64,000 bases of DNA from Trichormus sp. ATA11-4-KO1 (lineage in GTDB: Bacteria > Cyanobacteriota > Cyanobacteriia > Cyanobacteriales > Nostocaceae). Where the stretch lies: NCBI GenBank assembly GCA_019358915.1, contig JAHHIM010000009.1, positions 32,001 through 96,000 of the forward strand, read 5' to 3'. The notes below the pieces were generated by a model. That model did no database searches, was not told where the DNA came from, and was given only the letters and a program-made list of their open reading frames with translations. Numbering within the stretch: the stretch's first letter is position 1; every line of letters begins with the position of its first letter. The position numbers and the translations under genes were made by a program. Shown here piece after piece: positions 35,396-43,828 of this stretch.

Positions 35396-36709
35396 TTAAA
35401 ACATGATCCGACAAACTACCAAAGATGCCAACATGCCTGCGGCATCAGCACACAGCGCCGCCGGGAGTGTGTAGCTAGTGCGAACAATACCAATGCTACC
35501 AAAATAAACTGCCATTACATAAAATGTAGTTTCGGTTGATCCTTGCATTGTGGAAACCAAAAAAGACAGAAAACTGTTAGGGTCATTTTTCACAATTTCT
35601 GACATCAGTCCAAATGAGCCACTACCTGACAGGGGACGAATTAATGCCATCGGTAAGGCTTCAGGTGGCAGGGTGATGAGCGAAGTAATCGGAGAAACTA
35701 TTGTTGTTAAAATATCGAGAGCGCCACTGGCACGAAACATGCCAATGGCAACAAAAATTGCTACTAAAAAAGGAATAATCCGAATGGCAATTTCAAAGCC
35801 TTCTTTTGCTCCTTCTGTGAGAACTTCATAAACTTTCACCCCTTTGAAATAACCAAATAAAAGAAACAAACAAATTAAAATAGGTAGCAGCCAGTTGGAA
35901 AGGTTACTGACAAAAGCCATGCTAAAAAGATAAGGAAATCCTCGCACTGAAAGGCGGTAAAATACAGCCCCGACAAATGCTACAATGAGCGCTCCGAAAA
36001 CGAAATTACCAATCATGCCGGGAGGTATTAATTCGGATTCTGGAGTTGCATCGGATGCGATTTTGGTGTCTGGGTTGGTAGTCTCTGATTCAGATTCCCA
36101 GACAGTCACAAGAGAAGATGCGCGGCGAGCGAGAAATTTACTAGCAATAATGGCGACGGCTGTAGAGCAGATAGTGGCAATAATTGAGGGCAGGATAATT
36201 GCGGCGGGATTGCTAGCCCCAGCACTGGCTCGCACAGTGATCACACCGAGGGGTAACAGTGTTACCGATGAGGTATTAATTGCTAAAAACAAACACATGG
36301 CAGATGTTGCTGTCCCCGGATGGGGATTGAGTTTATTCAGTTCTGCCATAGCTTTTAAACCCATCGGGGTGGCAGCATTTCCTAAACCGAGAGCATTTGC
36401 TGCCATATTCATCACCATGGCTGACATGGCAGGGTGATTGGCAGGAATTTCCGGAAATAGTCGGCTCATCACCGGACGAATCAAACGGGCAATGAATCGC
36501 ATCATCCCTGCGGTTTCGGCAACCTTCATAATTCCCAACCACAGCGCCATCGCCCCAATCAGGCCGATAGCTAGTGTCACTGCATTTTCAGCTGCTGTAA
36601 ACGACGCTTCTGTTAAAGCCGCCATCTTGCCGTTGTAAGCTGCCACTACAGTTGCAGAAACAATCAAGAACAGCCAAATGGCATTGAGTGGCGACGATGA
36701 TTTTTTCAT
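35396..36709 (-). CDS. Fused SpmA/SpmB-type nucleoside-recognition (Gate) membrane protein
   Basis: NALGLGNAATPMGLKAM (SpmA) and RPLSGSGS, GSTETTFYVMAVYFG (SpmB). Confidence 0.85.
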   Translation of the reverse strand: MKKSSSPLNAIWLFLIVSATVVAAYNGKMAALTEASFTAAENAVTLAIGLIGAMALWLGIMKVAETAGMMRFIARLIRPVMSRLFPEIPANHPAMSAMVMNMAANALGLGNAATPMGLKAMAELNKLNPHPGTATSAMCLFLAINTSSVTLLPLGVITVRASAGASNPAAIILPSIIATICSTAVAIIASKFLARRASSLVTVWESESETTNPDTKIASDATPESELIPPGMIGNFVFGALIVAFVGAVFYRLSVRGFPYLFSMAFVSNLSNWLLPILICLFLLFGYFKGVKVYEVLTEGAKEGFEIAIRIIPFLVAIFVAIGMFRASGALDILTTIVSPITSLITLPPEALPMALIRPLSGSGSFGLMSEIVKNDPNSFLSFLVSTMQGSTETTFYVMAVYFGSIGIVRTSYTLPAALCADAAGMLASLVVCRIMF

Positions 36710-39906: not shown

Positions 39907-40085
39907 TATAGCAGTTGACAATTGAATGCCATACATTTTTAGCTTTTGCGAATGCCTCTCTTACAAGCTAAAGAGAGGGCTTGTTACCCCTTCATTAATA
40001 GGGAACTTGGGTTTTCCATAAATACATAGTCTATATTTAGGGAAATTTTGGAGAGATGTATTTTATTCAATTGAAAACCACTATA
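39907..40085. mobile_element. Degenerate MITE with TA-ended inverted repeats
   Basis: TATAGCAGTTGACAATTGAAT-gcc-ATACAT versus reverse complement of right end TATAGTGGTTTTCAATTGAAT-aaa-ATACAT; no ORF. Confidence 0.65.
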
Positions 40086-40145: not shown

Positions 40146-40328
40146 TTAACTAAGTTGAGTTACTGCACCGCCTCCAGGATTACTGATATTAATGCTAGAA
40201 CCATCAGGATTAATAAAAGTAATAGAATCACCAGTTCCTGGAGCTTTTGTGAATGTTTGCTCAGTGATGTCTTCTACAGAACCGTAGAGATTTAACGCGG
40301 GTTTAGACCAGGATTTTTGAGTTTGCAT
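40146..40328 (-). CDS. Lasso-type RiPP precursor peptide
   Basis: 60 aa with RBS AGGAG; leader WSKPAL (YxxPxL-type) and GSVEDIT (Gx5T); between cyclase and kinase. Confidence 0.9.
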   Translation of the reverse strand: MQTQKSWSKPALNLYGSVEDITEQTFTKAPGTGDSITFINPDGSSINISNPGGGAVTQLS

Positions 40329-40457: not shown

Positions 40458-42344
40458 TTATAAAAAAGTTGTGTTTTGCAACCAAATTGCTAAGTTAATT
40501 GCTGTGTAAACTGTCATAGCATCTTGTTCGTGCATAGGGTTAGATAAATAGCGATAATAGGTAGCACGTAATGCTGCAATATCGACATACTTTTCAATAA
40601 TTTCAGGTTGCTTAATAATTATTTCGTCTAAAACTTTCTGTTCAAATTCCAGAAGCTTAGGTTTAAAACTAGCACCTAAATTGGCTTTAGAAATTCTTGT
40701 TTGTAATTCAGGTGGTAAAATTCCTGCCATAGCACGACGCGCAATTAGCCGAGTCCATCCAGAGGAACATTTTTGTTCAGGAGGTATAGCTAAACAAAAT
40801 TCCATCAACCTGCGATCGCAGAAGGGAAACGCCAAAGAAACAGCAAAAGCACTAGATAATTTATCAGCTATTTCTAGCCCATATTGAATTAAGCCAGAGT
40901 TAATACTATGCCAATGTATTTCTCTAGCTGTCACAGGTATATCAATACTTTTTTGCTGTTCCTCAAAATATGCTGATAAATTTATTTGTTTGGCAAATGC
41001 AGGATTAATTGCTTTGTCAGCCCAGATAGGTTTATCAACTATTCGCCCAATAAATTCAGGTATTAAAGGTTGCAATCCCCATCGCCAAATTACTTGCATC
41101 CAAGACTGGTGAAATCTGGATGCGTAAGCTTTAGTTTCTTTCAAAAACCTCTTAAACTTGAATGTCCGGATTAAATCTGTGAGATAGTACTGACCATGAG
41201 AAATAGTCGTATCACCATCTATGCCATCTAAGACAATACGAACATTATTTTCTCGGACTTTTTGATAAATTATCCAATTGAGGTATAGATTAGGGGCACA
41301 GAAACCTTCATCCATATGCCAAAAAATTTTGTCATGCTCTGTTAAAGGACTAATCCCATCCGCCTCAATATAGTGAGGTATAATCCCCTCTTGAGCTACA
41401 ACTAAGTCAACATAAAATCGTTCATCAATCAGCCGTAAGTATTCTGCTTGTAAGTTGGGAAATATAGCAGAAAAAGAGTGTAATTTTTCATGCTTCTGTT
41501 GCGTCAGGATATCACGAGCAACACAGGTAATTGAGGAAGAATCTAGCCCCCCGCTCAACATTGAGCCTCCAGGAAAGGCGCTGCGTAGTCGGCAACTTAC
41601 CGCTTTAGTAAAAATTTCCCGATAGGCTTCGGCATACTCTTGATTTGAACTTAATCGCAGTTCTTGTGATGGATCTAACGACCAATAACGCCGGGTTTGC
41701 TTAGTTTCATAACCAACAATCAGACTATGGGCTGCTGGAAGTCGGAGAATATTTTCATAAAAGGTAATCTCCCGGTCTTCAAACACTCTAGATAAGTATT
41801 GTCCTACTCTGAGTTCATTGAGTCGGCGAGGTACTTCTGGTAAGCACAGCAGAGCTTTAATTTCGGAAGCGAAGGCAAAAATCTGGCTCGAACGATAGTA
41901 GTAAAAAGGTTTGATACCCATTGGATCTCTGGCGCAGAAAAGTATCTGTCGGCGCTGATCCCAAATGACAAAGGCAAAATCGCCCAATAGCTTTTCCGGG
42001 CAATGTTCTCCCCATTTTTCATAGGCAGATAAAATGAGTTGACTATCGGTGATTTTTGCCGATGGTTGCTCGTTCAACTGCAATGCACAAATGAGTTCAT
42101 CCCGATTATCAATGCGAGCATCGGCTGTAATAACTAAATTCCCTGTGTGATTAACTAAAGGCAACTTTTCTAACAGAGATTCGGGAGTTGTCCACAGCAT
42201 CCTGTGTCCCATTCCCACAGACTCCTCCGTCCATATGTCTGCACCATCAGAACCACGATGAGCTAAAACCTCAGCCATCTTTCCCAAAGTAGCTGAGTCT
42301 ATTTGCTGTCCGTCTAGATAGTAAACTCCAAAAATTGCGCTCAC
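40458..42344 (-). CDS. Lasso peptide cyclase (asparagine synthetase-like C protein)
   Basis: AsnB fold with MSAIFG (catalytic Cys replaced by Ser), ARDPMGIKPFYY, LSGGLDSSSI, GIDGD, FPFCDRRL; next to B1/B2. Confidence 0.9.
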   Translation of the reverse strand: MSAIFGVYYLDGQQIDSATLGKMAEVLAHRGSDGADIWTEESVGMGHRMLWTTPESLLEKLPLVNHTGNLVITADARIDNRDELICALQLNEQPSAKITDSQLILSAYEKWGEHCPEKLLGDFAFVIWDQRRQILFCARDPMGIKPFYYYRSSQIFAFASEIKALLCLPEVPRRLNELRVGQYLSRVFEDREITFYENILRLPAAHSLIVGYETKQTRRYWSLDPSQELRLSSNQEYAEAYREIFTKAVSCRLRSAFPGGSMLSGGLDSSSITCVARDILTQQKHEKLHSFSAIFPNLQAEYLRLIDERFYVDLVVAQEGIIPHYIEADGISPLTEHDKIFWHMDEGFCAPNLYLNWIIYQKVRENNVRIVLDGIDGDTTISHGQYYLTDLIRTFKFKRFLKETKAYASRFHQSWMQVIWRWGLQPLIPEFIGRIVDKPIWADKAINPAFAKQINLSAYFEEQQKSIDIPVTAREIHWHSINSGLIQYGLEIADKLSSAFAVSLAFPFCDRRLMEFCLAIPPEQKCSSGWTRLIARRAMAGILPPELQTRISKANLGASFKPKLLEFEQKVLDEIIIKQPEIIEKYVDIAALRATYYRYLSNPMHEQDAMTVYTAINLAIWLQNTTFL

Positions 42345-43114: not shown

Positions 43115-43162
43115 CTGCTTATGTCCATTTAATTTTGGCTGGTGTGAGTATCAAAATCGTCA

Positions 43163-43331
43163 TTATGGTTAACCTGAGTTTGATGACCTCTCCCCAACCC
43201 CTCTCCGTGTCGGAGAAGGGCTTAAATATCTTGAAAGCTCAACGAGAAATTAAGGTTTTGCAGCCTCTCTCCTGCAAGGGGAGAGGTTTGGAGAGGGGTT
43301 TTTCAACTTGTCAAACTCACGTTATGGTTAA
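43163..43331. mobile_element. MITE with terminal inverted repeats and direct flanking repeat
   Basis: TAACCTGAGTTTGA / TCAAACTCACGTTA inverted ends; TTATGGTTAA repeated at 43163-43172 and 43322-43331; internal CCTCTCC/GGAGAGG palindromes. Confidence 0.8.
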
Positions 43332-43382
43332 TAGCAAAAGTCTTCTCAAGAGGAATAAACTCCCTTGATGGCATAAATTTCA

Positions 43383-43433
43383 GTCCACTAAAGTGGACTT
43401 GGGTTATTAGCCAAGAAATAAATTTCTTGGCTG
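43383..43433. repeat. Paired palindromic small dispersed repeat
   Basis: GTCCACT-aa-AGTGGAC and AGCCAAGAAAT-aa-ATTTCTTGGCT. Confidence 0.65.
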
Positions 43434-43828
43434 GAAATTGAGCGGATGCAAGATGCAAGCAAAGCTATTTACAAGCGTTCAGCCGTTATGCATGTAAACA
43501 AATCTGCCGATTTCGTTCAATAGGTTTTCTAAAACTATGCCAAAAGATGATGTTGATATCATGCATTACGGATACTGATTTATTGATATGTCTAAAGAAG
43601 TAAATAGTGTGCTTTTTTTTAGGCTCTATTGTCTAAAATGATACTAAACACTCCAACATCAATCATCTTTCATCACTCTCGTGAGAGAATAATATCTTAA
43701 AGCGCCCATCGCCTGGACTGTCATGATACTGGATAGGGTATATGGCAGTTGCCAATGTAGCTGAGGATATAAACTAATCATCAACCTTGGATACCAAGGG
43801 ATTTTTAAGTCTGTCCCCTGCTATATCA

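Follow-up and report, generated by a model that had tools for sequence, protein, structure and literature searches.

The biosynthesis of lasso peptides follows an established course, namely removal of the leader, adenylation of an Asp and attack of an amine (PMC13352647). Closure by the N-terminal amine on an Asp or Glu at core positions 7–9 is the class-defining step and, in the available part of this review of June 2026, it is stated without exception: the N-terminus is the only nucleophile, rings comprise 7–9 residues and cores 13–33 residues. The rings of benenodin-1 and lihuanodin count 25 and 28 atoms, and in a variant of lihuanodin a ring of 29 atoms came unthreaded (PMC13352647).

Kinase-tailored class II lasso peptides, i.e. 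paeninodin and the product of the Bsf cluster from Bradymonas sediminis (PMC10368454), are encoded together with the same split B1 and B2 proteins and the same asparagine-synthetase-like cyclase as the peptide from the cyanobacterium Trichormus sp. ATA11-4-KO1 described here. These clusters likewise possess an HPr-like kinase, an ABC transporter and often a nucleotidyltransferase, their leaders follow the −17/−14/−12 register, and a C-terminal Ser is common to paeninodin and the Trichormus precursor. BsfA was considered as the closest known equivalent and rejected because it is of the Gly1–Asp8 type; according to the available part of PMC10368454 it is assigned this ring, has Ile at −2 and was never detected as cyclised product. 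Unlike BsfA, the Trichormus type shows no acceptor at core positions 7–9, an internal invariant Lys and an insert in the cyclase. Leader and gene order are also shared with the NCBIfam families lasso_cyano (NF033528) and rhodolasso (NF033534), and none of the curated NCBIfam models describes a core with the motif KxxGxxD.

An isopeptide bond of a Lys ε-amine is known in lasso peptides of class V (gelatinamin A, lariocidin B; PMC13178200). In these peptides a separate transpeptidase links the Lys to the C-terminus, in addition to an Ala1–Asp8 ring (PMC13178200). In contrast, the Lys bond of the Trichormus peptide would be the main ring and would be made by the cyclase.

Graspetides, which are RiPPs of the ATP-grasp kind (see also PMC13097080), contain side-chain Lys–Asp/Glu macrolactams and free termini, they are made by ATP-grasp ligases and form no rotaxane. 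A lactam between side chains with both termini free is common to them and the proposed Trichormus ring, whereas no ATP-grasp ligase, by which a graspetide cluster would be recognised, was matched among the six cluster proteins. Huascopeptin (PMC12427821) also has a seven-residue span ending in Asp; its ring of 22 atoms starts from the α-amine of Gly1 and leaves no overhang. In the literature searched, chiefly the main texts of open papers, no Lys side chain was described as closing a lasso ring on Asp, and six spellings of the KxxGxxD motif led to no paper. Comparison of the Trichormus locus with its relatives suggests, with a probability of roughly two in three, that here the side chain of Lys28 closes the ring on Asp34.

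The cluster and its precursor peptide

The window, i.e. the whole stretch of 64,000 nucleotides that was analysed, contains a cluster that is complete for the lasso type and comprises B1, B2, cyclase, precursor, HPr-like kinase and ABC transporter, all encoded on the minus strand (Table 1). B1 reached 74.7 bits with NF033536, just short of the cut-off of 80, and the cyclase has an intact SGGLDSS loop (41535–41555). The ATG of the precursor gene is preceded by an AGGAG site 8 bases upstream, and one terminator-like hairpin was found against a mean of 0.2 in shuffled sequences.

Table 1. Features of the lasso cluster of Trichormus sp. ATA11-4-KO1, with positions counted in the window.
Feature	Position	Strand	Basis or remark
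ABC exporter D, 615 aa	37016..38863	minus	PF00005 and weak PF00664
HPr-kinase-like peptide kinase, 305 aa	38882..39799	minus	PF07475 37.4 bits, cut-off 33.3
Terminator-like hairpin 3' of precursor gene	39974..39991	minus	consensus match only
Precursor peptide A, 60 aa	40146..40328	minus	translation; homologues at same place in related loci
Loop and tail, residues 35–60	40149..40226	minus	ends with Ser60 (likely kinase site)
KxxGxxD motif Lys28–Asp34, predicted ring	40227..40247	minus	family comparison
Predicted N-terminal overhang Gln24–Thr27 (core 1–4)	40248..40259	minus	inferred
Leader, residues 1–23	40260..40328	minus	Trp7-x-x-Pro10-x-Leu12, Thr22 = −2
Lasso cyclase C, 628 aa, asparagine-synthetase fold	40458..42344	minus	NF033535 847 bits, cut-off 525
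Cyclase insert, residues 299–303	41436..41450	minus	part of helix 300–306, just before invariant Asp307-Glu308
Leader peptidase B2, 151 aa	42373..42828	minus	NF033537 100 bits, cut-off 33; Cys85/His120/Glu124 kept
RRE protein B1 (PqqD family), 104 aa	42800..43114	minus	PF05402 69 bits

The cleavage site was predicted from the leader register −17/−14/−12 and −2 described in PMC10368454. In this register Trp7, Pro10 and Leu12 together with Gly16-x5-Thr22 give a canonical core of 37 residues starting from Gln24, just as the first-pass annotation had predicted, and the leader displays (Y/W)xxPxL over −17 to −12 as well as a Thr in position −2, as expected of lasso precursors. That annotation had called the leader motifs canonical, which is right for the register; the usual motif is, however, YxxPxL (PMC10368454), and the Trp marks the type described below. 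Its reading of the core agrees with the translation: positions 7–9 are Pro-Gly-Thr, Asp34 and Asp42 occupy core positions 11 and 19, and the span from Lys28 to Asp34 is exactly seven residues. There is no Glu in the core, and Lys28 (core position 5) is the sole Lys. Asp42 is not conserved, being absent from the relatives P0003 and P0004. Since no acceptor is found at core positions 7–9, the peptide lies outside lasso peptides as they are defined, though it is encoded with lasso machinery.

The core had also been regarded as unusually long. With 37 residues it indeed exceeds the range of 13–33 (PMC13352647), but this range is descriptive and is surpassed by canonical-looking relatives as well, among them a rule-abiding precursor of the same genome with a core of 53 residues. 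Profiles recognise little beyond the leader: the precursor scored 17.8 bits with lasso_cyano (cut-off 33) and 19.4 bits with rhodolasso (cut-off 30), both weak matches confined to the leader, and among 15 relatives scanned one passed lasso_cyano, every match to this model being restricted to profile positions 1–22.

The rule-abiding precursor (Phe1...Asp9) belongs to a second lasso cluster of this genome, retrieved as L017 (G000:C36:124771-129789) and L274, in which the cyclase is without insert and the only nucleotidyltransferase match of the genome is located. This cluster is a natural control pair with the one in Table 1. In the window the gap upstream of B1 (43115–43828) holds no nucleotidyltransferase, and at 43185–43305 it contains an imperfect, G+C-rich inverted repeat, which we take to resemble the short palindromic repeats that filamentous cyanobacteria often contain. 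The close relative L003 (2075–4524) has a nucleotidyltransferase (PF14907) and, between its gene and B1, two ORFs that look transposase-like by eye. Downstream of the ABC gene, at 35396–36709 on the same strand, a membrane protein of 437 aa with two Gate (PF07670) regions is encoded. Glutaminyl cyclase (PF05096) was absent from the genome, which is 99.9% complete; therefore, any capping of Gln1 would be spontaneous, which we counted against the proposed product.

Precursors with an internal lysine

When the precursor alone served as query, no more than three homologues were matched, and loci were retrieved by cyclase queries instead. The resulting 194 loci include some repeated contigs and some matches that are not lasso enzymes; small ORFs were chosen as precursors by the leader pattern only, with the core ignored, which yielded at least one in 143 of the 194 loci and none in 51. 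KxxGxxD occurs in the 26 residues that follow the leader Thr in 47 of 172 unique precursors, compared with a mean of 1.8 and a maximum of 7 in 500 within-peptide shuffles; these 47 do not reflect prevalence because the queries enriched the set for this Lys type. An Asp or Glu at canonical core positions 7–9 is found in 118 of the 125 precursors lacking the motif but in only 9 of the 47 motif-bearing ones. Trp at −17 (32/47 vs 1/125) is a marker of the Lys type, and Gln at core position +1 is present in 22 of 45 Lys-type and 7 of 125 canonical locus precursors. With 79 further loci, four of which gave no precursor, the number of unique motif-bearing precursors is now 98. In addition, a profile built from ten motif-bearing precursors matched 748 representatives (50% identity) at E 0.001; among the best 150 of them 146 were parsed and 144 contain KxxGxxD, whereby the Lys was selected by the profile and its offset was not. 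The four unparsed ones comprise one that is not a precursor and three that are Lys-type by eye.

The leader register of 16 residues from Trp/Tyr to Thr holds in 144/144 parsed representatives and 47/47 locus precursors, found with a pattern that permitted a spacing of 14–18 but demanded the Thr. Measured from this Thr, the Lys lies at an offset of 2–17 in the 144 among the best 150 representatives, so that Asp falls on core positions 7–22, and at 2–12 in the 98 locus precursors; in between the K-x2-G-x2-D spacing is constant. The segment in front of Lys thus ranges from 0 to 15 residues. A fixed distance from Lys to Asp and a variable one from the leader motif is what the first-pass annotation had named as support for a Lys–Asp side-chain ring with N-terminal overhang, and the comparison of homologues speaks for this option among the three it had listed. 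Unequal offsets even occur beside one enzyme set, namely in 8 of 81 loci (5 and 2 in L262), one of which, L061, has two cyclases. In L061 two Lys-type precursor–cyclase pairs are arranged in tandem, with offsets of 4 and 7.

These offsets bear directly on a second option of the first-pass annotation, by which the N-terminal amine would attack the conserved Asp and produce a ring of 11 residues and 34 atoms. The Lys would then serve some other purpose such as binding or later acylation. This ring would retain standard chemistry, and fusilassin enzymes tolerated rings of 7–10 residues (PMC13352647). For the whole family, however, it demands rings of 7–22 residues and several sizes from one enzyme, when already 29 atoms left a lihuanodin variant unthreaded; moreover, roughly every second member has Gln at +1 and no acyltransferase recurs in the loci. 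We regard this ring as very improbable indeed.

A more conventional size would result if cleavage occurred one residue before Lys, giving X1-Lys2...Asp8 and a normal ring of 25 atoms, the most common ring size. In the Trichormus peptide, this means Thr27–Asp34 with Thr25 at −2, the third option of the first-pass annotation. It has some local support: in the sub-branch of the Trichormus peptide, 9 out of 20 precursors show Thr three residues before Lys (three more show Ser), and its retention in the four nearest relatives counts against the Lys28 side-chain ring. In the wider family the option does not hold, since only 31 of 137 representatives with an offset of at least 4 have Thr at this place, residue 1 would be Pro in 9/144 representatives and 6/98 locus precursors, and members with offset 2 are out of register, which makes such a ring impossible for them. 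In addition, BsfB2 cleavage obeys the YxxPxL register (PMC10368454). This start of the core appears quite improbable.

The main rival to the Lys side-chain ring is a mature core that starts at Lys itself, which the first-pass annotation had omitted and which we added as a fourth option. B2 or a host aminopeptidase would trim the spacer, and the α-amine of Lys1 would react with Asp7 to a seven-residue ring of 22 atoms, for which the Gly1–Asp7 ring of huascopeptin (from a title cited in PMC12427821) is a precedent. Members with offset 2 (4/144 representatives, 6/98 locus precursors) directly read Thr(−2), X(−1), Lys1...Asp7; there the α-amine could serve, which stands against the need for a side-chain nucleophile. 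At longer offsets, in contrast, Thr is positioned two residues before Lys in just 9 of 140 representatives, and the residue before Lys is represented by 19 different letters including Pro (9/144). A varied residue before Lys combined with scarce Thr two residues before it is a poor fit to a peptidase site. Furthermore the leader Thr keeps its register, Gln at +1 would hinder trimming, and if the backbone amine alone reacted there would be no reason for the invariant Lys side chain.

The peptidase itself also gives no hint at a changed cut. No diagnostic column separates 27 clade B2 sequences from 73 canonical ones (best score 0.37) or 27 clade B1 sequences from 77 canonical ones (best score 0.57); clade B2 keeps Cys85, His120 and Glu124, and clade B1 keeps Tyr41. 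No change in the specificity of B1 or B2 was apparent. Neighbouring ORFs (947 from 38 Lys-type and 98 canonical loci, with limited flanks) were clustered and gave the same families for both kinds of loci; within these flanks, families confined to the Lys type recur only in two pairs of closely related loci. Among the recurring neighbour families of the 38 Lys-type loci, no dedicated trimming peptidase was found.

Cysteines of the relatives suggest what happens to the segment in front of Lys. Considering odd numbers of Cys before and after Lys, 20 of the 144 representatives are concordant, 1 and 5 are discordant and 118 are even on both sides (7, 0, 2 and 89 in the 98 locus precursors); L006 and L209 are examples of loci with such a Cys pair. 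In the 20 concordant peptides, the upstream Cys precedes Lys by 1, 2, 3 or 5 residues in 2, 11, 5 and 2 cases, respectively, i.e. by at least two in 18; in two peptides that contain a pair of Cys upstream, the downstream part is free of Cys. Such pairing of a Cys before Lys with one in the tail is predicted by a disulfide between overhang and tail, implying that the stretch before Lys would be retained in the mature peptide. This speaks against trimming up to Lys, and cleavage one residue before Lys would remove 18 of the 20 paired Cys. On the cyclase tree, only three independent pairs are left, all agreeing (p 0.25, not significant). The Trichormus peptide is without Cys, and retention of its overhang is deduced from the family. 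Taken together, a core starting at Lys seems unlikely to us.

Finally, the Lys amine may attack elsewhere, either the C-terminus in the style of class V or an Asp in a second chain; alternatively, the cyclase may add a small amine to Asp. Gelatinamin A and lariocidin B do contain Lys-to-C-terminus bonds, but class V depends on a clostripain-like transpeptidase and retains the N-terminal ring (PMC13178200). No such transpeptidase was detected in the six cluster proteins or in the recurring families of the 38 Lys-type loci, a search over flanks of 1.5–6 kb in which three recurring families gave no Pfam match. The distance from Lys to the C-terminus varies with tails of 6–40 residues, while that from Lys to Asp is fixed, and the cyclase begins with Met-Ser and lacks the N-terminal Cys that its glutamine-hydrolysing relatives possess. 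Attachment to another molecule is conceivable, since some related clusters lie amid polysaccharide genes; in general, we judge these other fates of the Lys improbable. In L063, L072 and L084 the genes concerned are a sugar transferase, a glycosyltransferase and Poly_export.

Lys-type loci were found in cyanobacteria, Acidobacteriota, Chloroflexota, Planctomycetota, Rokubacteria, Nitrospirota and others. Archaea of the Methanobacteriaceae (L089, L096, L108, L111, L112) possess related cyclases beside short canonical-looking precursors.

The cyclase and its insert

An insert of 4–5 residues, placed after the TFSAIFP strand and ahead of the invariant Asp-Glu, is present in 35/35 clade cyclases and in 0/98 canonical ones, a set that leaves out L053 and a non-lasso paralogue. 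In the AlphaFold2 model of the Trichormus cyclase (pLDDT 94) the insert forms part of a helix. Foldseek matches were TsnB9, AsnB and beta-lactam synthetase, and neither sequence nor fold search found a solved structure of a lasso cyclase. As in this fold family, the loop presumably borders the nucleotide site, and in agreement with this it comes after the strand following the SGGLDSS loop. Five residues before this loop, residue 259 is Gly in Trichormus and Val in its nearest relatives.

Whether the insert accompanies the precursor type could be seen in loci retrieved with the insert region of the cyclase, i.e. blind to the precursor. Of these 79 loci, 22 repeat earlier precursors; in the 53 with new precursors, all 38 insert cyclases stand beside a Lys-type precursor, including kin and hence not representing 38 independent cases. 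Ten new loci are without insert, nine of them canonical and the tenth with a normal Asp8 peptide that has Lys at position 2; the remaining five were unparsed, four of them being Lys-type. A half-length match to NF033535 was rejected as marker of the type, since L034 shows a half match together with canonical precursors.

In the cyclase tree of 140 rows the label of precursor type needs 7–8 changes, compared with 35 in shuffles, and a branch with SH-like support of 99 unites 34 Lys-type rows and one mixed row, which are the 35 clade cyclases, with one canonical-looking row. The latter is L053, which has the insert and a precursor without the motif that reads as canonical Asp9 peptide; its locus flank is short, and a reversion or a missed second precursor is possible. 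Outside this branch, four Lys-type loci without insert (L035, L159, L166, L177) possibly represent a second origin of the Lys type; an AU test in which L166 and L177 were grouped with the insert cyclases gave p 0.28. L177 encodes five KxxGxxD precursors with offsets of 5–6, and in L030 and L035 (G153:C49) two divergent tandem cyclase genes are followed by one short Lys-type precursor. Judged from L053 and the four loci without insert, a Lys-type precursor does not strictly require the insert, nor does the insert suffice for one, which we counted against the proposed ring. A second tree puts two canonical rows inside the Lys-type branch, and this branch is unresolved once the insert columns are removed. 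The constrained monophyly tree lies 5.6 log units above the free search and is not rejected (p-AU 0.55), so the alignment is compatible with monophyly of the insert cyclases.

The proposed product and its meaning

The best reading as a whole, to which we assign the same probability of about two in three, is a ring of 26 atoms between Lys28 and Asp34 with a C-terminal phosphoserine and an N-terminal overhang, for which known lasso peptides have no counterpart. B1 would bind the WxxPxL leader, and B2, keeping to the usual register, would cleave behind Glu23 to give the 37-residue core. The cyclase would then adenylate the side chain of Asp34, in line with the established chemistry of lasso cyclases, and the ε-amine of Lys28 would attack in place of the N-terminus, leading to a side-chain-to-side-chain lactam with a four-residue overhang. 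Gln1 may cap itself as pyroglutamate without an enzyme. If the cyclase measures from Lys, the length of the overhang would be free, and the insert, which presumably borders the nucleotide site, probably provides the space that the Lys side chain or the overhang requires. Phosphorylation of Ser60 by the kinase, as in paeninodin, is probable, and the ABC transporter would export the product. An HPr-like kinase in the cluster and a C-terminal Ser are the traits by which the paeninodin type is recognised, with phosphorylation itself being a prediction; this kinase family was found in 31 of 38 Lys-type loci and the C-terminal Ser in 83/144 representatives and 37/98 locus precursors.

Rings formed by the α-amine on Asp at positions 7, 8, 9 and 11 count 22, 25, 28 and 34 atoms, and the 26 atoms of the Lys28–Asp34 ring equal those of an ordinary eight-residue Glu lasso ring. 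This size lies within the 25–28 atoms of benenodin-1 and lihuanodin (PMC13352647), which we counted in favour of the proposed ring. Together with tails of at least nine residues (142/144 representatives) it permits threading, and given the Lys ring it is fairly likely that the tail is threaded through it. The complete picture is more tentative, at somewhat less than even chance: a threaded peptide with both termini free, i.e. a branched [1]rotaxane from a widespread, undescribed lasso branch with a Lys-ε-to-Asp ring, an N-terminal arm of 0–15 residues and, in some members, a disulfide from arm to tail. By analogy, the product may act as secreted effector or signal.

If this is true, a family of cyclases using an internal Lys would alter the definition of lasso peptides. 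It would also explain why many predicted precursors are rejected by mining rules (748 profile-matching representatives, of which the best 150 were examined). Such a cyclase would close the lasso at an internal site, with N-terminal extensions accepted, and would be an enzyme for knotting peptides with cargo at both ends. The five-residue insert would be a testable switch of the nucleophile and, as both cyclase types are present in the Trichormus genome, a direct swap is possible.
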